Source: an uncultured virus (IMG/VR IMGVR_UViG_3300028586_000785)
Taxonomy: Duplodnaviria > Heunggongvirae > Uroviricota > Caudoviricetes
Virus record (IMG/VR): IMGVR_UViG_3300028586_000785
Reading direction: 5' to 3' (one strand)
Length of the DNA stretch: 64,000 nucleotides
The notes beneath the pieces were generated by a model. The model saw only the letters and a program-made list of their open reading frames with translations, had not been told where the DNA came from and searched no databases. Positions within the stretch are counted from its first letter, which is position 1. Each line of letters starts with the position of its first letter. Made by a program: the position numbers and the translations under genes. Of the stretch, positions 719-20,042 are shown piece by piece.

Positions 719-1291
719 TCATTTTGCGATAACCATTACAGTCCACAAAGTTGCGGCAAGCGTTGCGTCGATGTCCTCCGCCAAGCACGTCAGGACGAAT
801 GACCAGGGTGGCTGGCTGTTCATATTCAAGATGATGTCGAACGCAGTAGACACCTCATGAGGCGCAAGAGCAAGCACATCATCGATACCGTACCCAAATA
901 CCAAAGCAGCGGCGTGCAGTCTCGCCACGTCATCGAAGTGGTTTGTCACTCTGGCATAGCGCTTGCTCATCTCTTTACGAGCCTGGTCCCGCGCGACATG
1001 AGCACCCATATACTTCATCGAGGCGCGTGCGTACACACTATGAGGGGTTTTAGCATCTTCCTCAGAGCGAAGCACGAACCCAACAGTGAACGCTTCCTCT
1101 ACCCTTCGGATGCATTCTTCCTCGGTGATGTCAGGAAGTAGCGGACGGTACCTCGGATAGTACGAAAGATCATGGATGGACTCAGCAATGCCCAAGCTGA
1201 TTATGCGGATGTGATCTTCGACTAAGAGCTTCCTATCCCAGTAGAAGTACATCATCGCTTGTTGGATTTCCGGTGAAGCGACGTTAGACAT
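719..1291 (-). CDS. Paralog-array family protein (copy 1)
   Basis: C-terminal GYGIDDVLAL...PPWSFV...EDIDATLAATL. Confidence 0.8.
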   Translation of the reverse strand: MSNVASPEIQQAMMYFYWDRKLLVEDHIRIISLGIAESIHDLSYYPRYRPLLPDITEEECIRRVEEAFTVGFVLRSEEDAKTPHSVYARASMKYMGAHVARDQARKEMSKRYARVTNHFDDVARLHAAALVFGYGIDDVLALAPHEVSTAFDIILNMNSQPPWSFVLTCLAEDIDATLAATLWTVMVIAK

Positions 1292-1793
1292 AAGGAACGT
1301 CCTTCCGCATGCTTGCCACGAGCGAAGTGTCGATATCGTTGTAGATGGATTCCTGCACCATAGACCACGGCAGGTGAGAGCCTACCGACTCCACAAACGC
1401 GAACGCGGTAGAAACCTGCTCAGCGGTTAGTGCGGTGACATCAACAGAGTCATAGCCGTACATGAGGGCGAACGCTTCCACTGCGGCGAGAGAAACACCA
1501 AAGCTCTCGAAAGCCCGTTCCCTCATAGCAATGAGAGTGTCGTCTCTTACATAGAGGTGATCTACACTCAGTGTCACCGCAACACTGAGTAGCGCAAAAG
1601 TCTTCCTGTCGTGCTCTTCCCAGTCGCTCGTTGCGAACAAGCCAGGCATGTTGATATTGTCCGCGATTCCTTCGACTGTCGCCCGTCTGATGACTGTCCC
1701 TCTTTTGATCAGACGGACCCATACCTGACGAAGGTATTCGAAGTCAGGTGCAGACGCTCCACTTGCGCCATCGAAAGCATCAGGCGCTGGCAT
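1284..1793 (-). CDS. Paralog-array family protein (copy 2)
   Basis: GYDSVDVTAL...LPWSMV...DIDTSLVASM; start refined to MPAPD, overlapping the upstream stop. Confidence 0.8.
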   Translation of the reverse strand: MPAPDAFDGASGASAPDFEYLRQVWVRLIKRGTVIRRATVEGIADNINMPGLFATSDWEEHDRKTFALLSVAVTLSVDHLYVRDDTLIAMRERAFESFGVSLAAVEAFALMYGYDSVDVTALTAEQVSTAFAFVESVGSHLPWSMVQESIYNDIDTSLVASMRKDVPYV

Positions 1794-2439
1794 TGCTTGA
1801 CCCCGCCCAAAGGCTCTCAACAAGAGTGCTATCGATGCCCGCCGTCAGGTACTCCACCAGGGAAAACCACGGGAGTTTGCCAGGAGCCGAACTTGCCAAT
1901 CGAACAGCAGTGGAAACCTGTGTCGGAGTAAGACCGACAACACCCTCGATTCCGTATCCACACATGAGGATGTACGCCTCCACCATCACACTGCCGTCAT
2001 CACCGAAATGCTTTAATGCAGCCCTCACCTTCGGGGGAGTAGCAGTGGGGTCTTTCTGCGGCTCGGTCGCTGCTCCTTTGCACTGAATATTCAGGCGCAC
2101 CAACTCGTCGTCAGGAGCTAGTTTATTGGACAGGTTGAGTAGAGAGGTGACTCGCTCTTCTCGGTCCTCTTCCGTGATGCCTTCCGGAAAGAGGATGTCC
2201 CACATGGCGTAATTCGAAAGCACACGGATGAGAGATTTGATACCCGTGCCGTCTTCCGACCGAGATGGCTCGGAAGCTCTTTGGGACGTATATGTATTTG
2301 CCAAGTCGGGAGTTCTCTGTCGGTTGACCACCTCCGTCAGAGCGGTCAACTCTCTGCGATAGAGCATGATGTAGTTCTGGTCATGAAATGCACTCAGCGC
2401 CCCCAGCCGCGTCGTGGTGTCATGAGGAGAGATATACAT
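1780..2439 (-). CDS. Paralog-array family protein (copy 3)
   Basis: GYGIEGVVGL...LPWFSL...GIDSTLVESL. Confidence 0.8.
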   Translation of the reverse strand: MYISPHDTTTRLGALSAFHDQNYIMLYRRELTALTEVVNRQRTPDLANTYTSQRASEPSRSEDGTGIKSLIRVLSNYAMWDILFPEGITEEDREERVTSLLNLSNKLAPDDELVRLNIQCKGAATEPQKDPTATPPKVRAALKHFGDDGSVMVEAYILMCGYGIEGVVGLTPTQVSTAVRLASSAPGKLPWFSLVEYLTAGIDSTLVESLWAGSSNASA

Positions 2440-2520
2440 ACTCCCATTACCTCACAAAAACGCCATTGACGCAAATCGAGTACGTCGCACAAACACCTAC
2501 AAATTAGTGCTTGTTTTCGC

Positions 2521-2550
2521 TTGACACGCTTCTTGAAACCTGACTAGGTT
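2521..2550 (+). promoter_or_regulatory. SigA-type promoter
   Basis: TTGACA-18 nt-TAGGTT upstream of 2596. Confidence 0.6.
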
Positions 2551-2595
2551 GGAGTCATCAAAGCAAACCCGGAGTCACAAGCCAAGGAGAACATC

Positions 2596-2787
2596 ATGTC
2601 GAACACCGAGCGTCTCACCAAGGAAGCCAACACCACCGACACGACCAGCCCCGACTTCAACCCCGACATGGACATCACCATCGCCGGGTGCAACGGCAAG
2701 ACCTACCGCGACCTCATCCTCGCAGGCTTCGACCCGAACGACCACGACGACCTCGATGAGTTCCGTGCTCAGGTACAGGGTCTCTGA
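2596..2787 (+). CDS. Small acidic hypothetical protein
   Basis: AAGGAG RBS, high-GC codon usage, own promoter and terminator. Confidence 0.75.
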   Translation: MSNTERLTKEANTTDTTSPDFNPDMDITIAGCNGKTYRDLILAGFDPNDHDDLDEFRAQVQGL

Positions 2788-2807
2788 ACCGCCTCGACCG
2801 GACATGC

Positions 2808-2842
2808 AAGAACCCCTCACCGAAAGATAGTGAGGGGTTCTT
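2808..2842. terminator. Terminator between convergent genes
   Basis: AAGAACCCCTCAC/GTGAGGGGTTCTT 13-bp inverted repeat. Confidence 0.75.
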
Positions 2843-2861
2843 TGCTTCTGAGTTGTGTCGC

Positions 2862-3455
2862 CTAGCCGTGCGACCGGCTCGCTGCTCTCTTTTCGTGCTT
2901 CTGGTGACTCTCCTGCAAAGCATTCTCTCGCATCACCTTGCTCATCAGTTCGAAGTGCGCTCGACCGGAGCCGTCGTACGACTCAACGTAGAACGGGTCG
3001 TTTGCCGCAGCCTCCATGACAGCGAGGTCAAGCTGCATGCTCGCCTTGATCGTCTCTACGGTCTTGCGACGATAGTCCAGCACTACCTTTGAGACAGGCT
3101 CACTCGGGACGTTCTTCATCTTCTTGATATCGAGCGCGTCGAACTCGGAAGCGCTGAGATGCGTCCACTCGTTACCGTCCGGGAAATGGTCGCTCTCGCT
3201 GGCTGCCTGGTTCAGCCGGAGAATAACCTGTCCGTGTGTCACAACCGTCTGATGACCGTTCTCTGTAATGGACCACGAGACTCCATTGGGCATGGCGAAC
3301 ACGCAGATGGTGGGGTTGACCGTGCTGCTCAGCCAATGATTCACAAGACGCACGGACTCACGGGTTATCACGAGAGCTTCGACACGGATGGACTTATCAT
3401 CCACGAACTTCCACCATGTAGGACGGTTGAGAGAAAGCTTTTCGGAGTTAGTCAT
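2862..3455 (-). CDS. Hypothetical protein, probably leaderless
   Basis: 197 aa ORF; TTGCAC-17-TAATGT (3462-3490) ends 6 nt before the ATG. Confidence 0.7.
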   Translation of the reverse strand: MTNSEKLSLNRPTWWKFVDDKSIRVEALVITRESVRLVNHWLSSTVNPTICVFAMPNGVSWSITENGHQTVVTHGQVILRLNQAASESDHFPDGNEWTHLSASEFDALDIKKMKNVPSEPVSKVVLDYRRKTVETIKASMQLDLAVMEAAANDPFYVESYDGSGRAHFELMSKVMRENALQESHQKHEKRAASRSHG

Positions 3456-3499
3456 CTAGCTACATTACGCCATTACGGAACAATGTGCAACAAGTGCAT

Positions 3500-3817
3500 C
3501 TACTTGCTATCGATGAACGACTCAGCTAGGTCAAGGTCTACGTCTGAATCCACCAAGCTCAGCACGGTCTCCCATGAGAACCTACCCGGCGCACGAGAGA
3601 CAATCATGAGAGCTTTCTCGACATGCTCAGCAGGAAGACTCAGTACGTCTGAGAGCGGGTAGAACGCATTCAGAGTTATCGCGCAAAGCCACACATCTTT
3701 GGGGAAGGTAGCTTCGAGTGCACTACCGATTGATGGACGCACCTCCACAACATTGGCTGTGTGGTCATAGGAGTGCTGTGAGCGGGTCGCTACGCTTACT
3801 CGCGTGTCGTTGGTCAC
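3500..3817 (-). CDS. Paralog-array family protein, short form (copy 4)
   Basis: FYPLSDVLSL...FSWETV...DVDLDLAESF; lacks most of the N-terminal region. Confidence 0.7.
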   Translation of the reverse strand: MTNDTRVSVATRSQHSYDHTANVVEVRPSIGSALEATFPKDVWLCAITLNAFYPLSDVLSLPAEHVEKALMIVSRAPGRFSWETVLSLVDSDVDLDLAESFIDSK

Positions 3818-3858
3818 AATGCGGTTCCGAGTCGTTCAGAGGGGCTGTCTACAGGCAA

Positions 3859-3897
3859 AAGCCGTTCCCTAGGCTGGAAGCTACTAGGGAACGGCTT
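3859..3897. terminator. Intrinsic terminator
   Basis: AAGCCGTTCCCTAG/CTAGGGAACGGCTT inverted repeat just after the 3904 stop. Confidence 0.75.
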
Positions 3898-3903
3898 GTG
3901 AGG

Positions 3904-4176
3904 CTACTTGCTCTTGTGGGTGAGAGCGAGCAGGTCACGCTTGAAGTCGCGATAGTCCTCACCGATCAGAACGCGGAACATGATGATGGAGAGCGCCGCG
4001 CCGAAGATGATGGTGGCTGCACCCATCTCGTAGAAGTTCTGAGCGGGGGCTTCGGTGGGGTTGGTGGACGGACCAAGGAACATGAACACTCCGAAAGCCA
4101 CGAAGATGGCGAAGAAGACGATGGCGAAGATGCCGATCTGGATGCCATCGATGTGCTTCTTGATGAACTCGCTCAT
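3904..4176 (-). CDS. Small two-TM membrane protein
   Basis: Two hydrophobic helices; AAGGAG RBS; promoter TTGCAC-17-TAGTGT at 4231-4259. Confidence 0.8.
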   Translation of the reverse strand: MSEFIKKHIDGIQIGIFAIVFFAIFVAFGVFMFLGPSTNPTEAPAQNFYEMGAATIIFGAALSIIMFRVLIGEDYRDFKRDLLALTHKSK

Positions 4177-4278
4177 TGGGTGCTCCTTGGAGGCTTGTCG
4201 CTTAGGGCTGTTCCCCTTGCTGATAGCTAAACACTACACTGCTTCCGTGAAGAGTGCAACTCACAAACTACATCGCGC

Positions 4279-4827
4279 TTATCGCGCACCACCCAGAAGC
4301 GAAGAGGCAAGAGAGCTATCAACCTGAGCATCGACCATGCGCAGAATCGTCAGCCACGACGGCACACCATCGCGCTCGACCGCTTCCCCAGCAGCAGTGA
4401 GAATCTCGTCAGTAGGGATACCAGCCACCTCAGCCGGTGGGCGTTCCATACTCAGAGCGAATGCAGCGCCAGGGCTACTCAATGCAAGAGCAGCGGCACT
4501 CAGGATCTCATCAGACGACAAAGAAACGACATCAAGCGGCGGGTAGACCATGCCAAGAGTGAACGCTGCACCCTTGACGCTCTTCTCACAGTTCAGTTCC
4601 ACGAAAGGCTTTGCCCTGACAGCAGCCTCGTTGATGGCTATGATGTCGCTCAGAACCCTTGCACTGCTCGGATCGGACCGATGGCTGATAATCTCATCGA
4701 CGGATGACTTCACACGACTGAGACTCAGGTCAGCCATCTGCGACAGTGTGAAGCTCGGGTCAGCATCCTCGACCCACTCCACAGGGATGCGGAGGACGTT
4801 AGCGAAGTAGTACTCGACTGCGCTCAT
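4279..4827 (-). CDS. Paralog-array family protein with internal duplication (copy 5)
   Basis: YPPLDVVSLSSDEILSAA...RPPAEVAGIPTDEILTAA...PSWLTI...QVDSSLASSLL. Confidence 0.8.
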   Translation of the reverse strand: MSAVEYYFANVLRIPVEWVEDADPSFTLSQMADLSLSRVKSSVDEIISHRSDPSSARVLSDIIAINEAAVRAKPFVELNCEKSVKGAAFTLGMVYPPLDVVSLSSDEILSAAALALSSPGAAFALSMERPPAEVAGIPTDEILTAAGEAVERDGVPSWLTILRMVDAQVDSSLASSLLGGAR

Positions 4828-4939
4828 TGGATACCTTTCCGGTTGAGGGTGTCACAGCACTCGACGATATGCCTGGACACACTATGGTTCGCGGAAACGA
4901 ATAGTACTGGTAGTACCCAGAATAATCAAATCGATTCCG

Positions 4940-5461
4940 TTAGTGCCCGCTCAGCATGCTCGACGCAAGCTCACCATCGACATCGGAAGAAGACAGTCGA
5001 AGCAAGACATCCAAAGAGTGCTGTCGTGGCATTGCGGCGACAGCAGACCGATAGCAACCCGCTACCTCATCGGCGGACAAAGCGAGAACATCATCCACAG
5101 GAGAGCCGAACGCCAAGACGAACGCTTGAAGCGAGACCAGCCCTTCGAATGCAGCAAGCACCTTCGTGCGCACTATCGAACTCTCGTAAAGGTCATCGTG
5201 ACTGAGATTTGCAGCAAGCGAGAGGGACTCCCTGATGATGTCATCCCGCTGCTGGTCTGAGGCACCCTCTGCGAAAAGCTCTTCCGTGTTCCTCATGGCG
5301 ATGAGTTCCGCAACGTTGTGATTGAAGCTGTTCTGCCTCATCTGATCACTGTATGCATCACCCTTGTTCCGTGTCCGAATGATGTTCATGCGCGCATGTG
5401 CGAACTCATTGAATCCATACCACCGAGGGTCAGAGTAATCAGCATTGGTCGGCTTGGTCAT
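4940..5461 (-). CDS. Paralog-array family protein (copy 6)
   Basis: FGSPVDDVLALSADEV...DVDGELASSML. Confidence 0.8.
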   Translation of the reverse strand: MTKPTNADYSDPRWYGFNEFAHARMNIIRTRNKGDAYSDQMRQNSFNHNVAELIAMRNTEELFAEGASDQQRDDIIRESLSLAANLSHDDLYESSIVRTKVLAAFEGLVSLQAFVLAFGSPVDDVLALSADEVAGCYRSAVAAMPRQHSLDVLLRLSSSDVDGELASSMLSGH

Positions 5462-6003
5462 AGCGAAATACCTCCATCTTCCATGTCGAAGCGATTGTGA
5501 CCCAGAAAGCTCGCTGTAAGCGACGTATCGATGTCTGCCTGCGCCAGTCTGCGGAGCATGTCAAACGGCGGCTGAGAGCCTCTCATAGCTGATAGGACGG
5601 CGTAGCAGCGCTCTACCTCGTCAGTGTCCAATACCAGAACGTCCTCCGGTCGATAGCCTGCTGTCAGAACGTGTGCCTGCACGACCGTGACACCCTCGAA
5701 CCTTTCAAGCAACTCTGTATGACACTGAGTGAGTGTGTACGCCGTCACCTTGCCTTCATGACTCAGTAAGGCAGCGGTCATCAACGCTTGGTCGATAAAT
5801 TTGTCTTTATCACTCTCGGAAAACTCAGGAGGAAAGAAGTCACGGAGATAGCCGGATGCTAGTCGCTGACTGTGAGCTTCTAGAATGCGACTTTTTGTCT
5901 TCTCGCTGATGAGTGGGTTATCGTAGGCAATGCTTACGGCAATACGTTCCTGTCTGAAATCATCCAGCGCAGAGTGCTGTAGCTCGTTCCTCTCGTCACT
6001 CAC
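5458..6003 (-). CDS. Paralog-array family protein (copy 7)
   Basis: GYRPEDVLVL...DIDTSLTASFL; 4-nt overlaps with neighbours. Confidence 0.8.
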   Translation of the reverse strand: MSDERNELQHSALDDFRQERIAVSIAYDNPLISEKTKSRILEAHSQRLASGYLRDFFPPEFSESDKDKFIDQALMTAALLSHEGKVTAYTLTQCHTELLERFEGVTVVQAHVLTAGYRPEDVLVLDTDEVERCYAVLSAMRGSQPPFDMLRRLAQADIDTSLTASFLGHNRFDMEDGGISL

Positions 6004-6563
6004 CAGACCCTCCTATGGTCGTTCTCGGCTTCGCTACAACTCGCGTTCAAGATGGTTACTGCAAGACTTGTGTCAACGTCAGCAGACATCATATCCAGCA
6101 TAGTGGAAAACTGCGGTTGACACAATAGGGTCTCCGCCAAGACAGTGAAGTACCACTCCACCCCCTCAGCAGACAGCGCGAGAACATCCTCAGTGGGATA
6201 CCCGAACGTCAGCACGTACGCCTTCAACACAGTCACACCTTCGAACGTAGCTCGCACCTTCACCGAGATGTCGTCATCATGGTTCTCCCGAGCATCACTA
6301 CTCTCGATACCAAGGAAGACGGCAAGCTTCAACGCTTTCTCGGTGACGCTCTGCCGCCGACCAGCGGTCACGTCCCCAGGGAAGAAGACAGCCATCGGCT
6401 CAGATGCGATGAGTAGGCGCTCTTGGTACCCGTATCCCTCTCTCGCAGCACTGAGACTCAGACTGCCTATCTTCGTGAGCCACAATCGCGACGTATCGAA
6501 GTCATCCAAAGCTAGCTGCTGAACGTCCAACCCGTCATAGTCGTCTCTGTCAAGCGTTGTCAT
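6000..6563 (-). CDS. Paralog-array family protein (copy 8)
   Basis: GYPTEDVLAL...DVDTSLAVTIL. Confidence 0.8.
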   Translation of the reverse strand: MTTLDRDDYDGLDVQQLALDDFDTSRLWLTKIGSLSLSAAREGYGYQERLLIASEPMAVFFPGDVTAGRRQSVTEKALKLAVFLGIESSDARENHDDDISVKVRATFEGVTVLKAYVLTFGYPTEDVLALSAEGVEWYFTVLAETLLCQPQFSTMLDMMSADVDTSLAVTILNASCSEAENDHRRVW

Positions 6564-7116
6564 GCTCGGTATTTCTCCGCTCTACGACCATCGATGGGTC
6601 GCCCAGCAGATGCCCCAGGAGTTCCTTGTCAACATCATCCTTAGACACCCTGCCTAGCATCTCCCACGACAACTGATCGGGTAACGCCCTCAACGCAGCA
6701 CGGAAATACTCTCCTACTTCATTGGGAGTCAACGCGAACACATCTTCGAATCTATACCCGCATTGGAGAGCGTAAGCCTGCAAGGATATTTCGTTGTAAG
6801 GCTGCTTGAGTGACTCTACCGCCACCTCATGAACCGAATGCAAAGGCACACCATCCATCCGCTCTAATGAATGAGCAACAGACAGAACATCTTCGAGGAA
6901 GACGCTCTTTTGCTGCTCTGAACACTCATGAGGAAATAGTTCATGGACCCATTCGTTTGACCCAAAACTGCGGATAGCCTCTTCTCGTTTATCAGACTGA
7001 GGCTTCTTCCAGATCTGCTCAGCATCATCAAAAATCTGCATCTGCACACGAGCTAATTGCATTACGGATAGTGCACCTTCTCGTTCCAATAATGCCAACT
7101 TCTGTAGTGGATTCAC
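6550..7116 (-). CDS. Paralog-array family protein (copy 9)
   Basis: GYRFEDVFAL...LSWEML...DVDKELLGHLL. Confidence 0.8.
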   Translation of the reverse strand: MNPLQKLALLEREGALSVMQLARVQMQIFDDAEQIWKKPQSDKREEAIRSFGSNEWVHELFPHECSEQQKSVFLEDVLSVAHSLERMDGVPLHSVHEVAVESLKQPYNEISLQAYALQCGYRFEDVFALTPNEVGEYFRAALRALPDQLSWEMLGRVSKDDVDKELLGHLLGDPSMVVERRNTEHDNA

Positions 7117-7673
7117 CGTGTGGTCCCTTCATCAACCGTCGCATCAGTCAAGAGATTGTTCAAGAGATTACTCAGGAGTGACCCGTCCACATCAACACGA
7201 GATAGGTTGCCCAGGGTCTCCCAATCAAGCTTCTTAGGTCGTGCCATGAACGCTACCTCGTAGTACCTCATTGCTTCTACATTGCTCAGAGCGAGAACGT
7301 CATCCACTGGATACCCAAAGGTCAAAACAAAGGCTCGCAACAGTGCTAGTCCTTCGAACGTGCTACAGATATCTTCTACGCAATCTGCATTGTCACGCCA
7401 TGTCTTATGATCGCTATTCCTGTGTAGCTCAACGGCGAACATGATTATGTCAGGCACTCTCCGCTCGGCATCGCTCTTAGAGAAGTGCCGAGGAAGCAAG
7501 CTTCTCATTCCTTCGCTGCCCGAAAGCGACGACGCGAACGCAGAAGCGCTATATCTCTTCTTAGACGAAAATTCATAGCTACTGACAGCCACCGCACTAT
7601 AGCGAAAATACTTCAAGGCAGTGCGCTGCATTTCAAGGCGCTCGCGCTCTGCGTCATAATGTTCGTCCGTCAC
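7113..7673 (-). CDS. Paralog-array family protein (copy 10)
   Basis: GYPVDDVLAL...LDWETL...DVDGSLLSNLL; GTG start overlapping the upstream TGA. Confidence 0.8.
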   Translation of the reverse strand: MTDEHYDAERERLEMQRTALKYFRYSAVAVSSYEFSSKKRYSASAFASSLSGSEGMRSLLPRHFSKSDAERRVPDIIMFAVELHRNSDHKTWRDNADCVEDICSTFEGLALLRAFVLTFGYPVDDVLALSNVEAMRYYEVAFMARPKKLDWETLGNLSRVDVDGSLLSNLLNNLLTDATVDEGTTR

Positions 7674-8248
7674 TGGATACCGCCCGTCTCCATACCAGCA
7701 GAATACGACTGAGGTGCAAGGAAGCTGCTCAGGAGAGAACTGTCCACATCGATATGAGCCAGCTTGACCAGGGTCTCCCACTCAACCCTCTGAGGATGCG
7801 CTCTCAGAGCCGAATCGTAGTACCGCGTCACTTCGTCCGCACTCAGGCTGAGAACGTCTTCTACGGGGTATCCGAACGACAACACAAATGCGTTCAATAC
7901 GGTCTCACCCTCGAACGCACCTCGAATACTCTCCGACACCATCTTGCTCGCAGGGAAGCGCTTGCGGGCATCGTCCATCCGTAACCGGGTGGCAAGGAGC
8001 AGCCTCTCTTTGGTGACTCGCTCGACATCACTCTTGGAGGATGACTTCGGGAAGAAGCTTGTCATCCCATCACCCTTGGAGAAGTTGTAGGCGAAGATAC
8101 CTGCCGTCATACCGACCTCTACCCTCTGCCATATATTGATGGAGTTGCTCACCTTCATGAGTGAACTTACCGAAGTGCGAAACCGCTCCAATGTGTTCCG
8201 CTGCAACAACTCAAGGTCGCGTGCAGGGTCGATAATCATTCTCGTCAT
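7670..8248 (-). CDS. Paralog-array family protein (copy 11)
   Basis: GYPVEDVLSL...VEWETL...DVDSSLLSSFL. Confidence 0.8.
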   Translation of the reverse strand: MTRMIIDPARDLELLQRNTLERFRTSVSSLMKVSNSINIWQRVEVGMTAGIFAYNFSKGDGMTSFFPKSSSKSDVERVTKERLLLATRLRMDDARKRFPASKMVSESIRGAFEGETVLNAFVLSFGYPVEDVLSLSADEVTRYYDSALRAHPQRVEWETLVKLAHIDVDSSLLSSFLAPQSYSAGMETGGIQ

Positions 8249-8835
8249 CGAGCGACACCTACGCTCATATCGTCTTCGTACTCAGACGAACCAGCCAGCA
8301 AGCTCGACACAAGGGTGTCATCCACGTCGAGACCTATCAATCTCTGCACCACAGCAAGTGGGAACTGATGCGGAAGTCTCCGGGCTACGAACTGAAAGCA
8401 TCCAGCAATATCATCGTCATTCAGGGCAAGAATGTCGTCGGGGAGATAGCCAAAGCTCAACGTGTACGCCTGCAACAGGGTCAACCCATCAAACCTCTTC
8501 CGGAACCTTCGCGAGGTATCTCTATCTTCCTGCCGAGACAACACTCCTGTATCGCTTCGGTATAGATGCGTTGCAAGGGTAAACGCTTCTTTGAGAATGA
8601 CCGCCTTGTCGTATTCCGAAAGGTCGTCGGTCAGCAATCCGAGAGTATGGTCGGATCGTGTAACCCTAGTGAGTTGGTAAGAACGTTCGCCTTCACGGGT
8701 TTTTGCATTAGGGCGGTCAGGCTTATCCTCCACGTCCTTGACCGTGTGTACCATCATATAGAACTGACCTAGACCCTTACGGGTGTAATCAAGAAACTCA
8801 ATCTCTTCGGCGGTGAGAGGACGTTCGTCGGTCAT
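8245..8835 (-). CDS. Paralog-array family protein (copy 12)
   Basis: GYLPDDILAL...DVDDTLVSSLL. Confidence 0.8.
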   Translation of the reverse strand: MTDERPLTAEEIEFLDYTRKGLGQFYMMVHTVKDVEDKPDRPNAKTREGERSYQLTRVTRSDHTLGLLTDDLSEYDKAVILKEAFTLATHLYRSDTGVLSRQEDRDTSRRFRKRFDGLTLLQAYTLSFGYLPDDILALNDDDIAGCFQFVARRLPHQFPLAVVQRLIGLDVDDTLVSSLLAGSSEYEDDMSVGVAR

Positions 8836-9308
8836 CGTGCCAACCTCTCTACATCAGCATCCGTCGAAGACGAAGACATAAAGCTCGACACAAGAGTGTC
8901 ATCCACATCGAGACCTACTAGCCCCCGCACAACAGCAAGCGGAAACCGATGCGGGAAATTCTGAAGGATAGACCGGCAGCATTCAATAACCTCATCATCA
9001 CCCAAAGTGAGAATTTCCTCAGGAGGAAAACCAAATCTCAACATGTACGCCTGCAACAAAGGCAAGCCATCAAACCTAGCCTGAAACTTTTGCGAGGTAT
9101 CTTCACGCCAATAAGACGACATTGAGTCACCTCGAAGGAGATGAAAGGCAAGGACATAAGTATCCTGAGCGACTACCTCCTTTTCAGATTCCGAAAGGTC
9201 TACTAACGCTTCTTGGATAATGCTTCTCTTCTCGGATCGTGAAAGTTCATCGGGCAGTAATTCGATAAACTGGGACTCCCTGTGGGTGAATTCCTGATTG
9301 TCAGTCAT
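8832..9308 (-). CDS. Paralog-array family protein (copy 13)
   Basis: GFPPEEILTL...DVDDTLVSSFM. Confidence 0.8.
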   Translation of the reverse strand: MTDNQEFTHRESQFIELLPDELSRSEKRSIIQEALVDLSESEKEVVAQDTYVLAFHLLRGDSMSSYWREDTSQKFQARFDGLPLLQAYMLRFGFPPEEILTLGDDEVIECCRSILQNFPHRFPLAVVRGLVGLDVDDTLVSSFMSSSSTDADVERLAR

Positions 9309-9874
9309 CGTCCCAACCCCTCTACATCAGCATCCATCGAAGACAGCAAGCTCGATATCAGAGAGTCATCCACGTCGAGCTTCACCAACTTGCTCAGCGT
9401 CTCCCAGGTCAGATATCCCGGTAGCGCACCCGCAGCGAGACGATAGTGCACCGCTACCTCATCAGCAGTCAGCGCGAGAATCTCCTGAGGACGGCAGCTA
9501 AACGCCAGAGCGTATGCCTGCAACAAAGTCGCACCTTCGAATCTTTCCCGCAACACTTCCGAGACCTGCTGCTTAGGAGTGATACCGCATTCTGCGTAAC
9601 CATACGTGGCAAGCACAAACGACTCTCTGATGAGGTGGATGCGGTCTGGGTTAGGCATCTGACCCTCAGGGAGTAATGCAAAGACCCGGCGGTTGTTGAG
9701 TACTAATGCCGCAGCACGCGACCGCGACTCCATCACTGACAGAGCAGGGTCATGTGAATATGGACCATCTACCACTTCTCGCACCGCTTGAAGAAATTCT
9801 GCCAACGGGCGCTCGGCAGATATGAAGCGCTCAACATCTGCTTCGGTAAGAGGACGACCATTACCATTCAACAT
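9305..9874 (-). CDS. Paralog-array family protein (copy 14)
   Basis: SCRPQEILAL...LTWETL...DVDDSLISSLL; start refined to MLNGNG. Confidence 0.8.
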   Translation of the reverse strand: MLNGNGRPLTEADVERFISAERPLAEFLQAVREVVDGPYSHDPALSVMESRSRAAALVLNNRRVFALLPEGQMPNPDRIHLIRESFVLATYGYAECGITPKQQVSEVLRERFEGATLLQAYALAFSCRPQEILALTADEVAVHYRLAAGALPGYLTWETLSKLVKLDVDDSLISSLLSSMDADVEGLGR

Positions 9875-10448
9875 CTGACACCTCTTCACTATCGGTGATA
9901 TCAGAAGAAGCCAGTAGGCTCGACACGAGGGCAGCATCCACATCCATCTCCGACCATTCTCGCAGCACATCCCAAGGTAGCTTCCGAGGTATACCGCTCA
10001 AAGCAAGTCGATAGTACGACCGAACTTCATCAGCGTTCCAATCGAGAATCTGCTCAGGGTAGCCAAAGCTCAGCGCATACGCTTGAACCAAGGTCACCCC
10101 GTCATACCGCTCCCGCAGCACCTGAGATATCTGAGTAGGGGTGATGAACAGTGTCATCTTGTGATGACCATAGGTGTCATGAATGTACGTGGCGAGAACG
10201 AACGCCTCCGTGGCAATGCTCACCTTCTCATCCTCAGAGAGGGAGTCAGGCAGCAGGCTGAGAATCCGGTCGTTCTCAGCGACACGTCGCGTGTAGTACG
10301 CGCGCGAAACTTCCGGGGTCATGGAGTCTACGAACTCCTTAGGGTTATCTACCGCTTTGCGGACGAACTGACGGAAGTCGTTCAAGGCTAGCTGAGCGGA
10401 GTGGAAGCGCTCACTTGCGAGTACATCACTTGTTCGGACTTCCGACAT
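9861..10448 (-). CDS. Paralog-array family protein (copy 15; first gene of a 10-gene run)
   Basis: GYPEQILDW...LPWDVL...DVDAALVSSLL; AGGAG RBS before MSEVRT. Confidence 0.8.
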   Translation of the reverse strand: MSEVRTSDVLASERFHSAQLALNDFRQFVRKAVDNPKEFVDSMTPEVSRAYYTRRVAENDRILSLLPDSLSEDEKVSIATEAFVLATYIHDTYGHHKMTLFITPTQISQVLRERYDGVTLVQAYALSFGYPEQILDWNADEVRSYYRLALSGIPRKLPWDVLREWSEMDVDAALVSSLLASSDITDSEEVSDVEW

Positions 10449-11706: not shown

Positions 11707-12234
11707 TCATGACCTCATCAGGTTCGCTATCAGAGACGAATCGATACCCTCATCCACGCACGCCATCAGGGTTGCCCAGGATGGCTGGACACCGGTCTTC
11801 AAGAGGGCAGCGAACGCCGCGTTAACCACCTCCGGCGAAAGAGCTATCACGTCAGCCGTCTCATACCCAAGCATCAAGGTCAGAGCTTCCAACCGGGTTC
11901 CACCTTCAAACGCTTTCAGTGCCGCGTTGATTCGCAGCCAGTCACTGTTCACATCGGTCGTGGCATCACCCATCGAGATCTCATCAGAAGAGCGCAGCAT
12001 CGTTCCTACCACTAACGCATCCTGCATCGCCTTCGTACGATGACTCTTAGTTACATCCCTGGGGAAGAGCTTCCGGTATACGACATCGGGATAGCCCAAC
12101 GTCGAGATATGCCTAGGGAGGTCGTTCTCATAAATCTCACCGCCGACCATAACCTGTGCGACCAAGCTGTTGCGTCGTCCCGTAAAATTACGCAAGGCGA
12201 TTTGCTCTTTCGTAAAGCTTGGACCGACTGCCAT
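11707..12234 (-). CDS. Paralog-array family protein (copy 16)
   Basis: GYETADVIAL...PSWATL...GIDSSLIANLM. Confidence 0.8.
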   Translation of the reverse strand: MAVGPSFTKEQIALRNFTGRRNSLVAQVMVGGEIYENDLPRHISTLGYPDVVYRKLFPRDVTKSHRTKAMQDALVVGTMLRSSDEISMGDATTDVNSDWLRINAALKAFEGGTRLEALTLMLGYETADVIALSPEVVNAAFAALLKTGVQPSWATLMACVDEGIDSSLIANLMRS

Positions 12235-12340: not shown

Positions 12341-12349
12341 AGAGCGTGC

Positions 12350-12811: not shown

Positions 12812-13360
12812 TCACGGTCTCGACATCGACAGGAAGCCATCGGGGTGGTTCGTGAGGCTATCCATCAGACCTAGGTCGATGTCCTCGGTGACACACCTTA
12901 CGTAGACTGCCAACGGTCGTTGCACTCTGGTACTCAGCACCATGTCGAAAACATCCGAGATCGTCTCCGGGGAAAGAGCTACCACGTCAGCCGTCTCATA
13001 CCCAAGCGTCAACGTGAATGCCTTCACCGCATCGATACCCGTGAACGAATCCAACACAGCCTCGACCGTCTGCCGGTTACGAACCAAGTCGTCTGTCACG
13101 TCACCGTCCATGCGCTCCTGAACAGAGCGCAGCGTTGTCCCGACGATGAAAGCGTCCTCTATCACGGTGAATCGCGTCTTTTCAGAAGTAGTCTTCGGGA
13201 AGAGATACTTGAATGTTTCATCTCTAGATGCGACGTAACTGAACGTGTAAGCAAGATAGTCGTTGTACACCATCGCTCTATGAACCATGCTATCGCGGCG
13301 CAGCCGGAAGACACGGAGGGCGTTGCTTACTCTTTTCGCCTTACGATGAAACAGGTCCAT
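12812..13360 (-). CDS. Paralog-array family protein (copy 17)
   Basis: GYETADVVAL...DIDLGLMDSL; start refined to MDLF. Confidence 0.8.
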   Translation of the reverse strand: MDLFHRKAKRVSNALRVFRLRRDSMVHRAMVYNDYLAYTFSYVASRDETFKYLFPKTTSEKTRFTVIEDAFIVGTTLRSVQERMDGDVTDDLVRNRQTVEAVLDSFTGIDAVKAFTLTLGYETADVVALSPETISDVFDMVLSTRVQRPLAVYVRCVTEDIDLGLMDSLTNHPDGFLSMSRP

Positions 13361-13428
13361 ACTCCATCCTCTCATGGAAACGGTATCTCACCAAATCGGC
13401 AAGGTCTGTGCCACCCATACACGACGAA

Positions 13429-13459
13429 GCCCCACCGGCTCAGAAAGAACCGATGGGGC
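13429..13459. terminator. Putative terminator
   Basis: GCCCCA...TGGGGC stem downstream of the 13498 stop. Confidence 0.45.
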
Positions 13460-13497
13460 GAATGCTCATTCAGCATAGCGCATCCATATGAGAAGTC

Positions 13498-14274: not shown

Positions 14275-14288
14275 GACTCAATGGTACA

Positions 14289-14996
14289 TCAGACCACAGT
14301 GAGCGGTTTCTGGTCAGTGACCATCCTCAGACTAAGGGACTGACCATCGAAGAATGATTGAGCCAATTCAAGGTCGATGTCCGCCCGCATCGAGACGATG
14401 ATGACTTCGTGTCTGAATCCCGCCTGGTGTAGTTCTACCAACCGACGCGAGTCGTACAAGGTGACATCATCCTCGGAGAACCCCAGCAGGAGAGCTACGG
14501 CGACACTCTGCGCCAGGTCACCATCCTTGATGCCCTTGGTCGCGGCAGAGATTTTCGCTTGCATTCTGTACGACGCGAGGTAATCGATGTCTACTACTTG
14601 GTGGTAGGAGATATCGTGACCGTACCAGTCATCATCATTGACCGGACCAACGATGAGAGTCTCCAAGCCACTGTTGATGATACCGCTCACAAACCTTCGT
14701 GGTGTCCCTGCTGCTCGAAGAGGGTCATGCGAACGATGAACTGACAGGCATGTCATGACCATAGAGTACGTGACCGTCGCCAGACCTAGCAACATGAGAC
14801 CAGCACCAACAGCGAGGAGGTATACCGGAGCATGCCTACCTTCGTTGGGCGATACAAGCGGAGCAAACCAGAAGAGCGCCACCATATACGCCCCAAGGAT
14901 GATTGGTGCCAAGATAAGCATGGGGAATCCACCATGCTCCCAGACTCTTGTGAGTTCCGCCTTATGAAACCTACTCTTCACGTAGTCAGTGATCAT
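14289..14996 (-). CDS. Two-TM membrane protein fused to a divergent array-family C-terminal motif (copy 18)
   Basis: Two TM helices; C-terminal ALLLGFSEDDV...ADIDLELAQSF; ATGA overlap with the upstream gene. Confidence 0.7.
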   Translation of the reverse strand: MITDYVKSRFHKAELTRVWEHGGFPMLILAPIILGAYMVALFWFAPLVSPNEGRHAPVYLLAVGAGLMLLGLATVTYSMVMTCLSVHRSHDPLRAAGTPRRFVSGIINSGLETLIVGPVNDDDWYGHDISYHQVVDIDYLASYRMQAKISAATKGIKDGDLAQSVAVALLLGFSEDDVTLYDSRRLVELHQAGFRHEVIIVSMRADIDLELAQSFFDGQSLSLRMVTDQKPLTVV

Positions 14997-15283: not shown

Positions 15284-15337
15284 ACTTTCAACACTACATC
15301 ACAATAGTGTGAAGCGCAATATACCCAAACCGACTCA

Positions 15338-16415: not shown

Positions 16416-16978
16416 GACAACAACATCCCAGTCAGGTCACCGTCTACGCCCGCAGCAAGGAACACGAGCAGAGCATCCCAAGTGAGAAAATGCTCGACGT
16501 TCTGGATGATGCTGAGCGCCGAAACAATCTCATCATCCGTCAGTGACACTACACTCTCCACCGGATACGCCAACGTCAGCACTACCGCACCAAGCTGAGA
16601 GGACAAACCAACCTGCGAGTAAAACTCCTGTCTCGTTGTCGTGTTGATTCTTTCCATCAGAGGTTCTAGGTCAAGCCTCGATGAGTCTTCAGCGTCCAAC
16701 GTCAAAGACAGCAGCTTCACACCGATATCGACCAGGCGAAGAAGCTCCATCTGCCTGGCATCCTGAGAAACCCCATCAGCGAAGAATGCCTGGTAGCGGT
16801 AATCCGTCGCCACCTTGTCATATTCGTTCTTGGCGAGAATCTCCAACACACCACTCGGAGCATCACGACCAGCATTCTGTCGAGGGCTGTCTACCACCTT
16901 GTAGCACGTCAACCCGAACTGCCGGAACAACGTCCATTCGTCACGGTGGTTTGCCGGATGCTCTTTCCGTTCGCTCAT
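16412..16978 (-). CDS. Paralog-array family protein (copy 21)
   Basis: AYPVESVVSL...LTWDAL...GVDGDLTGMLL. Confidence 0.8.
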   Translation of the reverse strand: MSERKEHPANHRDEWTLFRQFGLTCYKVVDSPRQNAGRDAPSGVLEILAKNEYDKVATDYRYQAFFADGVSQDARQMELLRLVDIGVKLLSLTLDAEDSSRLDLEPLMERINTTTRQEFYSQVGLSSQLGAVVLTLAYPVESVVSLTDDEIVSALSIIQNVEHFLTWDALLVFLAAGVDGDLTGMLLS

Positions 16979-17550
16979 GACAGCAACATCCCAATCAAGC
17001 CGGTATCGATGTCCTTGGTGCTCATCATGAGCAAGGCATCCCAGGTGACGAAATAGGAAGCGACTTCCACAGCGCCGAGTGCCAGAGTGATTTCTTCATC
17101 GCTCAGTTCCGCTACCTGCTCCACCGGATATACCAACGCCAGTGTCAACGCACCAAGCTGAGAGGACCGACTCACCCGCGAGAGAAACTCTTCTCGTGCG
17201 GTCTTGTTGATTCTCTTCAAGAGGCTACTGCGGTCCACCTTCGATGAGTCCTCAGCATCCACCTCAAATGTCAACGTCAGCGTCAGAAGCTTCACGCCGA
17301 TGTCCAGCAGACGACGAAGCTCTACCTTCCGCGCCTCATCCGACAGGTCAGCATCGAAGAACATGCTGTAGCGGTCGATGCTCGATACCTTGTCGTACTC
17401 CTTCTCCACGAGTGCCTTCAACACGGCTGATACAAAGCCAGACTGACTCCGAGGCATCATGTCCACCACGTCACAGCAGGTCAGTCCGAACTTACGGAAC
17501 AGTGCCCACTCACCAAGAGTCCTATCCAACTGCCTGCGCCAGGAGTTCAT
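16975..17550 (-). CDS. Paralog-array family protein (copy 22)
   Basis: VYPVEQVAEL...VTWDAL...DIDTGLIGMLL. Confidence 0.8.
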   Translation of the reverse strand: MNSWRRQLDRTLGEWALFRKFGLTCCDVVDMMPRSQSGFVSAVLKALVEKEYDKVSSIDRYSMFFDADLSDEARKVELRRLLDIGVKLLTLTLTFEVDAEDSSKVDRSSLLKRINKTAREEFLSRVSRSSQLGALTLALVYPVEQVAELSDEEITLALGAVEVASYFVTWDALLMMSTKDIDTGLIGMLLS

Positions 17551-18107
17551 GACAGCAACATCGCAGTCAGGTCACCATCGACCCCTGTGGCGCTGAGCTT
17601 GGTAAGAACATCCCAGCGGACGAAGTGAGGAACGCTCTCCACGATACCCACCGCGACGGTAACCTCGTCATCGGTCAACGAAGCGACCTGCTCCAATGAA
17701 TACGCCAACGTCAGCGTCAGCGCCCCAAGCTGAGAGTGGAGACCCACCTCCGAGCGGAATCCTTCTTGTGTCGTGTCGTTGAGCTTGTCCATGATGTCAC
17801 CCAAGTCGGACTTCGAGGTGTCATTCGCATCCAACGTCAGCGTCAGGAGCTTCACGCCGATATCGAACAAGCGTCGAAGCTCAACGCGCCGCGCATCCTC
17901 TGACAGGTCAGCATCGAAGAACTTGCTGTAGCGATTATCCCTGAGGACTCTGCTGTATTCGTTCTCCGACAAGGTGACCAGCACATCGGCTGGTGTGGAG
18001 TACTGTGACCGAGCCATGTTCACCACCGTGTAGCACGCCAACCCGAACTTACGGAACAGCGTCCACTCATCATGGTCCCTGCCCAACCTTCTCCGCCAGT
18101 AGTTCAC
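17547..18107 (-). CDS. Paralog-array family protein (copy 23)
   Basis: AYSLEQVASL...VRWDVL...GVDGDLTAMLL. Confidence 0.8.
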   Translation of the reverse strand: MNYWRRRLGRDHDEWTLFRKFGLACYTVVNMARSQYSTPADVLVTLSENEYSRVLRDNRYSKFFDADLSEDARRVELRRLFDIGVKLLTLTLDANDTSKSDLGDIMDKLNDTTQEGFRSEVGLHSQLGALTLTLAYSLEQVASLTDDEVTVAVGIVESVPHFVRWDVLTKLSATGVDGDLTAMLLS

Positions 18108-18733
18108 GAGAGCCTCCCAAGCGAAGACTCATCATGGCTCCCTGACAGGCTCACCACGAGAGATGCATCGATGTCCTCGGCAAGGCACATCTGAACGAAC
18201 GACCACGGCATTTGAACCGAACCCGCTAAAACATATTCAAACGCCCGTGAGACCTCATCTGCGCTCAGTACCGACACGTCCGCCTCCGAGTACCCACACA
18301 GGAGCGCCATAGCCTCTAACGCCGTCACACCGCTGTAGCGTGCTGCCGCCTCACGCTTACGCTGATAGACCAGACTTTCTTCTCCGGTGACCGACAAGCT
18401 GCTGTCATGCCCAGTGCTTTCCATGACACGATGAGAGATAGCCCGCTCCGGAGTCTCCGCATCGGTACGAAGCATAGTCGCTACGTCATAGACATCAGCA
18501 AGCTTTTTCTGCCGGGTGCTGTCAGAAACATCCATCGGGAAGAGATAACCGTAGCGCGGGGATCGAACCACAGCGACTCTAATAATCGGAAGTTCTAGCT
18601 GTGCCTCATTCGTATGAGGGTTCAGCAAATGCTCCACGTACCGGTTCCTCATTCCCTGAACCGACTTCACTACCGTGAGCGTTGCGTCATACACATCCGG
18701 GGTCATCTGTTCGACCTGCGCACTGTCGCTCAT
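18104..18733 (-). CDS. Paralog-array family protein (copy 24)
   Basis: GYSEADVSVL...MPWSFV...DIDASLVVSL. Confidence 0.8.
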   Translation of the reverse strand: MSDSAQVEQMTPDVYDATLTVVKSVQGMRNRYVEHLLNPHTNEAQLELPIIRVAVVRSPRYGYLFPMDVSDSTRQKKLADVYDVATMLRTDAETPERAISHRVMESTGHDSSLSVTGEESLVYQRKREAAARYSGVTALEAMALLCGYSEADVSVLSADEVSRAFEYVLAGSVQMPWSFVQMCLAEDIDASLVVSLSGSHDESSLGRLS

Positions 18734-19332
18734 AGCAGAGCCATCGCAAGAAGACCGTCACGGCTGTTCAGCAAGCTGGTGAACAAAGACGGGTCGATAT
18801 CTGCCTTCACGCACTCGACTAGATATGACCACGGCAACTGCGCCTCGAACTTCACGCAGAGCGAGAACGCTGCCAGCACCTCGTCATGACTGAGGGACGT
18901 GACTTCCTTCACCGAGTACCCGCACATGAGAGCCAGAGCCTGCAAGGACGCAATACCGTAGAACGACGATGCTGCCGCTTCGAGCTTCGTATCGAAGACC
19001 TCTTCGTCTTCACCTGTGTACTCGTGTGGCAGACCTTCTAGCGTCTCACCCGCCGCGCGCTCTACGTCAGTCATCAGACAAGTACCCACGGTGTACGCAT
19101 CGTGAAGCATTTCCAGTCGCTCTTCCTCGGAAGCGAAAGCAGGGAAGAGCACCCGCTGCAAGATCGTGAGGGATGAGTAATGTTCGATGGAGTGCTCTCG
19201 CTTCTCCTTCGAATGGTTCCGAGCTAGCGCAAGGTGAACGGTGGCATTCCTGTTGCGCTGGAAGTTCAGCAACGCAGAGCGAGCTTCAAGCTCGTACATC
19301 TCAGATTCGTTGCGCGCGGTAGGAAGAGTCAT
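18730..19332 (-). CDS. Paralog-array family protein (copy 25)
   Basis: GYSVKEVTSL...LPWSYL...DIDPSLFTSLL. Confidence 0.8.
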   Translation of the reverse strand: MTLPTARNESEMYELEARSALLNFQRNRNATVHLALARNHSKEKREHSIEHYSSLTILQRVLFPAFASEEERLEMLHDAYTVGTCLMTDVERAAGETLEGLPHEYTGEDEEVFDTKLEAAASSFYGIASLQALALMCGYSVKEVTSLSHDEVLAAFSLCVKFEAQLPWSYLVECVKADIDPSLFTSLLNSRDGLLAMALL

Positions 19333-19409
19333 CCTTCAATCCTTTCACACAAACACGCTCAAAGCAAATCGATAACCTCAGCCGGTGGTTGTCATCCTTC
19401 GCTGAGGCT

Positions 19410-20042
19410 TCACCTTGATGCAGCTAGGAGCCTGTGACTGCCTCCGAGAAAGTCACTGAGCAACGACGGGTCGATGTCTGCCTTCATGCATTCCATCAGA
19501 CCGGTGAATGACAACTGCGTGTCGAACAACTCTTCCCGGAACTTCGCCACGAATGCACACGCCGCTGCAACCTCGTCAGCATCCAACGACGTGACTTCCT
19601 CAACCGAGTACCCACACATGAGCGCCAGAGCCTGTAGTGAGGCGACACCCTCGAACGATGTCATCGCCGCTTTGACCTTGGATTCCAAGACCGCTTTGCT
19701 CTCCCCTGTGTATTCGTACAACTGACCTGACACGTTGTCAGTGGCACGCTCAACGTCAGTCATGAGACTCGTCCCCACTATGTACGCCTCACGAAGAATT
19801 TCCTCCCGCTCAGCCTCTTTGATGAACACGGAGAAAAGCGCTCCCTGCAAAGTGGTCACTTCCGAGTAATGGTTCACAGAACTCATCACGTCCACTGCCG
19901 AGCTATTGATGAGCAGCCTGAAATGAACGGTGATGTTTCTCTTACTCTGGAACGACCGCAGACCGTGCCGAATATTGGACGCGCGGATCTTAGCCTTGTC
20001 CTTAGCTTTCGCCTTGGCATCACTCCGCGAGGTAGTCGTCAT
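19410..20042 (-). CDS. Paralog-array family protein (copy 26)
   Basis: GYSVEEVTSL...DIDPSLLSDFL; start refined to MTTTSR because its upstream region duplicates that of copy 25. Confidence 0.8.
   Translation of the reverse strand: MTTTSRSDAKAKAKDKAKIRASNIRHGLRSFQSKRNITVHFRLLINSSAVDVMSSVNHYSEVTTLQGALFSVFIKEAEREEILREAYIVGTSLMTDVERATDNVSGQLYEYTGESKAVLESKVKAAMTSFEGVASLQALALMCGYSVEEVTSLDADEVAAACAFVAKFREELFDTQLSFTGLMECMKADIDPSLLSDFLGGSHRLLAASR

Follow-up and report, generated by a model that had tools for sequence, protein, structure and literature searches.

The stretch of DNA considered here is a 64,000-nucleotide piece (the window, in its full length) of an uncultured virus classed in the Caudoviricetes (IMG/VR record IMGVR_UViG_3300028586_000785), in which positions 719-20147 are occupied by a near-continuous row of minus-strand open reading frames (ORFs) of 160-260 amino acids. 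A profile hidden Markov model (HMM) built from 25 aligned copies (alignment A1) and run against the 772 stop-to-stop ORFs of at least 40 amino acids in the window identified 26 minus-strand members of a single protein family, all of them within this row, with E-values of 2.1e-17 to 2.1e-55. Since the best ORF outside the family reached only E 0.18 and nothing matched between 20 and 64 kb, the count of 26, which an earlier note made from the sequence alone had also given, can be regarded as exact. On the evidence presented below, it is secure that the array is a genuine multigene family, under selection, coherent in structure and of very narrow taxonomic range, located in an accessory block of its carrier, a giant mobile element of at least 231 kb that belongs to a rare clade. 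The copies are the following (subfamilies A to D are those of the tree described further on; L002 is a contig from a 95,460-bp metagenome record that carries the same array).

719..1291, minus strand: copy 1, 190 amino acids, subfamily D; HMM E 8e-44; ortholog in L002 87% identical
1284..1793, minus strand: copy 2, about 169 amino acids from the ATG at 1793, divergent; HMM E 5.6e-37; start set by the length of ortholog P0029
1780..2439, minus strand: copy 3, 219 amino acids, divergent; HMM E 5.8e-41
3500..3817, minus strand: copy 4, short, 105 amino acids, C-terminal part only, subfamily A; HMM E 2.1e-17, profile positions 75-175
4279..4827, minus strand: copy 5, 182 amino acids, subfamily A; two HMM stretches
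4940..10448, minus strand: ten-copy run, subfamily C; HMM E 2e-41 to 3e-54; clade support 96
4940-5461, 5458-6003, 6000-6563, 6550-7116 and 7113-7673, minus strand: members 1-5 of the ten-copy run
7670-8248, 8245-8835, 8832-9308, 9305-9874 and 9861-10448, minus strand: members 6-10 of the ten-copy run
11707..12234, minus strand: copy 16, 175 amino acids, subfamily D; HMM E 4.5e-46
12812..13375, minus strand: copy 17, 187 amino acids, subfamily D; HMM E 8.3e-49
14289..14996, minus strand: copy 18, divergent; HMM E 4.9e-22; start set by ortholog P0047
15338..19332, minus strand: seven-copy run; HMM E 2e-55 to 9e-47; overlaps of 4-8 nt
15338-15871, 15864-16415, 16412-16978, 16975-17550 and 17547-18107, minus strand: subfamily B part of the seven-copy run; clade support 100
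18104-18733 and 18730-19332, minus strand: subfamily D part of the seven-copy run
19410..20042, minus strand: copy 26, about 210 amino acids from the ATG at 20042, subfamily D; HMM E 1.1e-49; internal starts

The overlapping runs of three (719-2439), ten (4940-10448) and seven genes (15338-19332) lie exactly where the earlier note had placed them, and with starts refined from ortholog lengths and sequence they comprise 17 overlapping junctions, 12 of 4 nt (ATGA/GTGA type), three of 14 nt and two of 8 nt. All three motifs proposed in that note reappear in the computed consensus, which reads LxAxxLxxGYxxEDVLxLxxDEVxxA...WxxLxxxxxxDVDxxLxxSLL in the C-terminal part and is accompanied by a central LF....S...R block and an N-terminal L..F. 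The C-terminal part is also better conserved than the remainder, as had been claimed, with a mean pairwise identity of 30.5% versus 17.5% for the N-terminal part (23 full-length copies, 253 pairs). A typical family protein has about 160-220 amino acids; paralogs are 8-61% identical, sister copies share 40-55% of their residues, and all reading frames are open. In total the array takes up about 20 kb, or some 8% of the 231-kb element. The GC content is 0.52-0.56 along the array (window 1-20000) and 0.49-0.52 in the replication-gene region (22-64 kb).

In agreement with the earlier statement that no copy shows an obvious frameshift, all 26 are intact, and three are atypical. The short copy at 3500-3817 has an ortholog (P0046) in a relative that is 92% identical and has the same short form, and a search for an N-terminal remnant upstream of it found none. 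In the copy at 4279-4827, part of the C-terminal block is duplicated internally. Copy 18 combines a hydrophobic N-terminal half (maximal 19-residue hydropathy 2.29) with a recognisable C-terminal block behind it and has orthologs on other contigs (P0047, P0072); its N-terminal half is probably membrane-spanning, with two or three likely helices, and a hydropathy scan of the 26 copies detected no hydrophobic segment in any of the others.

The description of the family as unrecognised holds in every collection that was compared: none of 27 proteins reached the Pfam cut-off, and at E-values up to 10 no Pfam family was matched by more than three of 69 members; PHROGs yielded three single-member matches at E 4e-4 or weaker (25 members), NCBIfam and PADLOC matched none of 25, the sequence profiles of the PDB gave no match to the family, and the fold searches described below were equally negative. 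The HMM and database comparison proposed at the outset (Pfam, IMG/VR, plasmid records) thus returned no characterised family. Among 1.84 billion representative proteins, the profile found 65 matches at E up to 0.001, of which 63 are real: 24 are 75-100% identical to copies of the window and 39 are 24-59% identical. The other two, P0042 (1211 amino acids) and P0063 (552 amino acids), are repeat-rich, have no BLAST match to the window copies and were set aside as spurious. None of the 63 is fused to another domain. The window's own contig measures 231,541 bp, and close relatives are found on contigs of 95,460, 637,428 and 805,269 bp; ten of the distant matches were traced, seven to a single 204,992-bp contig and three to the 805,269-bp contig. 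The element has been seen solely in plant-litter and leaf metagenomes. A query of IMG/VR with three family proteins revealed no further loci, species genomes searched with the family alignment and with a conserved protein of the element gave nothing, and the family was not found in the scans made of phage records and plasmid records. In the part of the literature open to full-text search, neither the family nor the element is mentioned, and narrow searches of the same kind encountered no tandem one-protein family of such size in phages or plasmids.

Structure was approached by modelling, which had likewise been proposed earlier. Using a 69-row alignment, AlphaFold2 modelled the copy at 18730-19332 with confidence as eleven helices (mean pLDDT 91.5, pTM 0.87), and the C-terminal 98 residues modelled alone reached a pLDDT of 86.1. 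Judging from this model, the common architecture of the family appears to be a single, all-alpha globule of eleven helices, soluble and acidic; all 26 copies have a pI of 4.3-6.8 and a net charge of -0.3 to -16. The best-conserved positions in 69 sequences are L135 and D180 (100%), followed by L147, Y139, A132, L183, V144 and W168, and they are either hydrophobic residues of the core or placed just before modelled helices. S148 and D180 precede the helices 149-162 and 181-188, with E151 three residues past S148, within the helix, and positions of the S148/D180 type may be read as helix caps. Because they are hydrophobic or situated at helix starts, the conserved residues look structural rather than catalytic, and nothing resembling a catalytic or metal-binding signature was recognised among the conserved positions of the 69 sequences, which agrees with the absence of a catalytic motif reported previously. 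The accompanying idea of a constant docking module attached to a variable domain finds no support: it is too simple, since the protein is modelled as one globule and its best-conserved residues look structural.

No neighbour of this fold emerged. With the full model, the best Foldseek hits had E 0.33 (PDB) and E 0.35 (BFVD), and VIA-align against 48,161 chains gave a best Z of 4.9, with no chain at Z of 5 or more; a second VIA-align comparison (pdb_via) peaked at Z 3.7. With the C-terminal model, the best Foldseek E-value against the PDB was 0.99 and the best VIA-align match was the N-terminal domain of glutaminyl-tRNA synthetase, GlnRS (3tl4), with Z 5.4 over 75 aligned residues and an rmsd of 3.3. 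As these Z values are under those that unrelated helical proteins usually reach (tool calibration), the modelled fold is considered to be one without a detectable relative, which is not the same as a proven new fold. The ESM Atlas offered nothing usable for 18730-19332 (Atlas model pLDDT 0.46), and the named-cluster scores for 8245-8835, at 0.76, were below noise.

Several leads were followed in the course of these comparisons and rejected. A relationship to GatB/YqeY was suggested by the GlnRS N-terminal match (Z 5.4), a GatDE tail (Z 3.0) and one member that matched phrog_1460, 'tRNA amidotransferase', at E 9e-4; it was abandoned on account of the lack of any Pfam GatB_Yqey signal in 69 members and the acidity of the proteins. 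The segment GYxxEDVxxLSxxEV was considered as a helix-turn-helix or sigma region 4 element, a reading discarded because no helix-turn-helix protein is prominent in the fold lists and the pI is acidic; its spacing also differs from the LuxR/sigma pattern. Two echoes of CRISPR-related proteins (Cas_GSU0053 at E 0.001 for one copy; the type I-D Cascade chain 7sba_J at Z 4.6) are at noise level, and the last 50 residues resemble a UBA/CUE-like three-helix unit no better than chance would allow (Z 3.0-3.1). The family does not fit the type VII secretion substrates of the WXG100/ESX kind either, which are helical hairpins of about 100 amino acids with a WxG turn and, in a C-terminal tail, a YxxxD/E motif for export: the protein is modelled as an 11-helix globule of about 190 residues, and Pfam WXG100 was matched by none of 69 members. 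The sequence Yxxx[DE] occurs at the conserved tyrosine in 40 of the 69, inside the fold.

These structural data bear directly on the possibility, which takes up the docking idea of the earlier note, that the proteins are regulatory adaptors of the transcription or proteolysis machinery; in the manner of anti-sigma factors or of protease adaptors, they would bind a single host hub by way of the conserved block. Small size, a helical fold and acidity are frequent among anti-sigma factors and adaptors, and a family of small, helical, acidic proteins with a conserved C-terminal block would fit this description. However, the fold searches matched neither anti-sigma domains nor helix-turn-helix folds nor known adaptors (best Z 4.9 with the whole model and 5.4 with the C-terminal one), the conserved residues have a structural look, and 26 regulators for one hub would be without precedent, which makes such a role distinctly improbable.

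To examine relationships within the family, a maximum-likelihood tree of 69 sequences was computed (quick search, SH-aLRT support only; 34 of 65 inner branches unresolved). It contains four subfamilies that correspond to physical blocks of the array: A, with the copies at 3500 and 4279 and 14 foreign proteins (support 96); B, the block 15338-18107 (support 100); C, the block 4940-10448 (support 96); and the looser D, with the copies at 719, 11707, 12812, 18104, 18730 and 19410 (support 85). Each subfamily includes members from other elements and must therefore be older than the split of these elements. Duplication went on within the blocks, and the family evolves by birth and death.

The relative contig L002 provides a closer view. 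The two elements are 95-97% identical, their arrays align in long collinear blocks of 92-97% DNA identity, and 24 of L002's 25 profile matches are intact one-to-one orthologs of window copies, with 87-100% protein identity. The remaining match, at 12174-12713 of L002, lies between the orthologs of 8245-8835 and 7670-8248 and is just 33-35% identical to any window copy; the window copy at 7113-7673 is without a counterpart in L002. One cassette swap separates the two arrays. Over 19 ortholog pairs of equal length and free of stops, the pooled dN/dS is 0.28 (Nei-Gojobori; pS 0.085, pN 0.024). The pairs left out, named here by their first coordinate, are 3500, 9305 and 16975 (length), 7113 and 7670 (swap region), 11112 (stops in L002), and 18730 and 19410, which are not in the gene list, L002 starting inside the ortholog of 18730 and having no counterpart of 19410. 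Five non-family genes of the same stretch have a dN/dS of 0.26, and for the 17 pairs that were split, the N-terminal part (0.30) and the C-terminal block (0.28) do not differ (Fisher p 0.59). The copies are under ordinary purifying selection, not stronger than that on their neighbours, and therefore evolve neither neutrally nor visibly under recent diversifying selection. That they would not be neutral had been anticipated by the earlier note; its suggestion of diversifying selection finds no support in either comparison.

Natural variants point to the gene as the unit of change. A look-up of sequencing runs retrieved 24 DNA runs from 18 studies and no RNA runs, and contigs from four runs (X2, X3, X4 and X7; four studies, including leaf litter, phyllosphere and straw) together cover 30 of 30 bins of the interval 500-20400, X7 with a single 61-kb contig that spans nearly the whole array and has about 3% differing letters over its longest piece. 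In X3 and X4, position 7133 is joined to 7719, and the copy at 7113-7673 is gone; in X2 and X3 (8824 joined to 9298) and in X7 (8846 joined to 9320), the copy at 8832-9308 is gone. The 25 nt upstream of the start of this last copy are near-identical to those of its sister copy 8245-8835, so that its loss fits unequal recombination. A joint of 11424 to 11701 in X2 and X3 cuts out a small non-family ORF (11361-11681), and X7 has 1211 additional letters at 20082-20091. The variants differ by whole-gene units, and single copies are dispensable.

Such dispensability is what would be expected of decaying or selfish repeats, that is, functionless ORFs that are open by chance or owing to recent duplication. 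This explanation is nevertheless essentially excluded: it is contradicted by the dN/dS of 0.28 over 19 pairs and by 24 of 25 orthologs remaining intact at about 4% DNA divergence, by paralogs that are merely 8-61% identical and yet have every frame open, by subfamilies common to distant elements, and by the confident fold prediction.

The gene content of the carrier supplies further constraints. The rest of the window, in which the non-family genes are nearly all on the minus strand, encodes DnaG, a RecA/UvsX-like protein, NERD and Vsr-like nucleases, a Pol III delta-like protein, an 804-amino-acid M23 peptidase, GyrA, GyrB, a PD-(D/E)XK nuclease, a beta clamp, SbcC/SbcD-like proteins, a DinG-like helicase, a WhiB-domain protein, a SNF2 helicase and a 1027-amino-acid FtsK/SpoIIIE protein, an FtsK-like ATPase with a single FtsK_SpoIIIE stretch. 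The nearest known phages are distant, with at most 37.5% identity for GyrA and at most 31% for the primase, the clamp being unmatched. Another IMG/VR record, G001 (sections L003-L013; 202,737 bp, classed as a provirus, CheckV completeness 96%), is collinear with the window at 36.9-64 kb with 70-80% DNA identity; it ends before the array, so that the absence of family copies from it is uninformative. Its replication genes amount to a full replisome of bacterial type and comprise DnaE, DnaB, DnaG, the clamp, a clamp-loader subunit, LigA and gyrase, and those of nucleotide metabolism ribonucleotide reductase, ThyX and dUTPase; RtcB, a CCA-adding-type enzyme, NAMPT and DUF2637 are also encoded, as are conjugation- or pilus-like proteins, namely an AAA_10 (VirB4-like) ATPase, two T2SSE proteins, T2SSF, ArdC-N and FtsK. 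The type I-E genes Cas3, Cse1, Cas5 and Cas6e are found from L008 14277 to L009 1760, with no Cas1 or Cas2 among the ORFs of at least 180 amino acids. One 17-kb array on one strand (L006 4899 to L007 1841, about 64.9-81.8 kb of the record) holds 64 tRNA genes and a tmRNA gene with the tag ANASRNDFALAA, which presumably resembles actinobacterial tags. The host is probably an actinobacterium, as far as gene content can tell.

An element of this kind might use the family as packaged or translocated cargo or as structural proteins, with the C-terminal helical module acting as a signal for incorporation or translocation; phiKZ-like phages offer an analogue in their paralogous proteins of the inner body and of ejection, and type IV secretion effectors another in their conserved C-terminal BID domain. 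The better conservation of the C-terminal part, the long coupled runs, suggestive of co-production, and the one probably membrane-anchored copy are compatible with such a role, as are the 1027-residue ATPase and the M23 peptidase of the element and the VirB4-like ATPase and T2SSE/T2SSF proteins of G001. Yet the proteins have neither a signal peptide nor a basic tail, the module is part of a compact modelled fold from which it is not separable, virion genes were not found in G001 with Pfam or PHROGs, and natural variants do without whole copies. On balance, we regard a cargo function as unlikely.

Two other genes of some size interrupt the array:

2862..3455, minus strand: non-family gene, 197 amino acids; dN/dS 0.10 versus L002
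13498..14274, minus strand: non-family gene, 258 amino acids

The first encodes a protein that is unlike the family and has neither a Pfam nor a PHROG match; the second has a weak YunG-like match (E 0.007, under the cut-off) and two homologs in 5.8 billion clusters. Between two family copies, at 3904-4176 on the minus strand, there is a 90-amino-acid ORF with two hydrophobic stretches, and the small ORF at 11361-11681 (106 amino acids) is 99.7% identical in L002. Two strong terminator-like hairpins occur on the minus strand at 12301-12341 and 10826-10857 (stems of 18 and 12 pairs), and sigma-70-like sites at 11094-11066 and 10799-10771 (minus strand) are located directly upstream of the ten-gene run; both are pattern matches only, and a promoter scan over the array observed 6 sites where 10.3 were expected. 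Upstream of the array as read on the minus strand, at 20150..22550, about 2.3 kb are devoid of a convincing ORF and strongly strand-asymmetric (AT skew 0.26), the minus strand being strongly pyrimidine-rich at 20950-22550 and G-rich at 20400-20950, with a 10-nt tandem repeat, CCGGCACCCT, present 3.9 times at 20388-20426. The stretch gave no Rfam match and contains no clear iterons; variants differ in this area, with loose ends of X3 and X4 at 20397 and the insert of X7 close by. An origin, a leader sequence and a long non-coding RNA are all conceivable identities for it.

As for the function of the array, we tentatively favour, at somewhat less than an even chance, a non-enzymatic repertoire of putative binders aimed at host factors, for counter-defence or takeover. 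This reading is guided by the non-catalytic character of the proteins, their acidic surfaces, the common scaffold with diverged surfaces, the dispensability of single copies and the confinement of the family to mobile elements. The core and helix-capping residues of the five C-terminal helices would keep the common scaffold, the diverged and mostly acidic surfaces would give every paralog its own protein (or DNA-binding-protein) target, and the array as a whole would be the element's accessory repertoire against its hosts, with a working mode akin to that of the host-range genes which large eukaryotic viruses carry as tandem families. A bolder form of the proposal, in which the family would be the prokaryotic counterpart of those giant-virus families, with a new all-alpha fold and at least 26 paralogs acting, in a hitherto undescribed clade of giant actinobacterial elements with their own replisome, 64 tRNAs and CRISPR-Cas, as modular decoys or inhibitors, each against another defence or hub protein of the host, is possible but doubtful.

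Another role that a tandem array of this type could have, immunity against the polymorphic toxins of competitors, deserves consideration here. Small, diverged, cytoplasmic paralogs in tandem, variable in copy number and devoid of an enzymatic motif, would suit an immunity repertoire. On the other side, the non-family ORFs within and beside the array, in the window and L002, contain no toxin domain detectable with Pfam or PHROGs, no named Pfam immunity family was matched at E-values as high as 10, scans of cellular genomes did not encounter the family, and 26 copies stand with no toxin-delivery locus in view. The chance that the array serves immunity is, in our estimation, small.

Several observations also weigh against the preferred reading of the array as a repertoire of host-directed binders. 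Amino-acid change in recent evolution is no higher in the family than in its neighbours (0.28 versus 0.26), and the variable N-terminal half equals the conserved block in dN/dS, which does not accord with an ongoing arms race within the period sampled; the lack of a raised dN/dS thus argues against a fast current arms race, yet not against an old, diversified repertoire. The tight translational coupling of 7-10 genes equally suits subunits of one assembly. The absence of defence and anti-defence matches in PADLOC is weak evidence, as that library consists of defence models and not of anti-defence models. The host phylum is read from two features, a WhiB domain (E 1.8e-5) and DUF2637. Finally, no capsid, portal or terminase was recognised in G001, a record that does not include the array region (114 ORFs of at least 180 amino acids against Pfam, and the 72 of these without a Pfam match against PHROGs), and the carrier may be either a huge phage whose virion genes escape recognition or a megaplasmid of phage-like character.

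If target-specific binding is what the proteins do, new inhibitors of defence or housekeeping proteins of bacteria could be drawn from them, and the array would be a tractable model of how a gene family on a prokaryotic mobile element evolves by birth and death. Giant eukaryotic viruses are characterised by large tandem families of a single protein. The carrier itself, with its full replisome, 64-tRNA array, tmRNA and type I-E Cas genes and without recognisable virion genes, is poorly charted.

Of the known systems compared, the tRNA-binding, GatB-YqeY-like N-terminal domain of GlnRS (3tl4) comes closest in structure to the C-terminal 98 residues, but at 7% sequence identity, with a Z far below a meaningful level for helical models and an acidity on the side of the array proteins that is ill-suited to RNA binding. 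Ocr and ArdA are acidic, DNA-mimicking anti-restriction proteins, Ocr being all-helical. Like them, the family consists of small, strongly acidic, non-enzymatic proteins of a mobile element (all 26 copies at pI 4.3-6.8, with net charges as low as -16), but it has no corresponding Pfam match, neither protein appears in the fold-search lists, and Ocr and ArdA are encoded by single genes and not in 26-member arrays. In the Bep effectors of Bartonella, the BID domain is separable, has a basic tail behind it and is what the VirD4 coupling protein recognises. Here, too, the conserved part of a set of paralogs is a C-terminal helical module, but it lies within one modelled globule, the proteins are acidic throughout, and BID is not among the listed fold matches. 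Tandem immunity genes near toxin loci are exemplified by the EssI/DUF600 arrays downstream of EsaD in Staphylococcus and by orphan immunity clusters. The co-oriented runs of small cytoplasmic paralogs of about 160-200 amino acids, variable in number, resemble the EssI/DUF600 arrays, whereas the lack of a toxin gene beside the array, the lack of a Pfam DUF600 or Imm match and the location on a mobile element, rather than in a chromosomal secretion locus, set it apart.

The MGF360/505 genes of African swine fever virus (ASFV) and the ankyrin/PRANC host-range genes of poxviruses are tandem multigene families of large eukaryotic DNA viruses. The array differs from them in belonging to a prokaryotic element, in its unrelated sequence and fold, with no Pfam ankyrin match, and perhaps in its position relative to a genome end, as it lies 19.8 kb from the end of L002's contig; the resemblance is one of layout and variation, a host-range role being a proposal in the present case. 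Within these bounds it extends to tandem, diverged paralogs that are helical and non-enzymatic, occupy a variable part of a giant genome and are gained and lost between strains, and the array shares the general behaviour of such multigene families, as is evident from its four subfamilies in blocks, the single swap relative to L002 and the precise single-gene deletions in X2, X3, X4 and X7.

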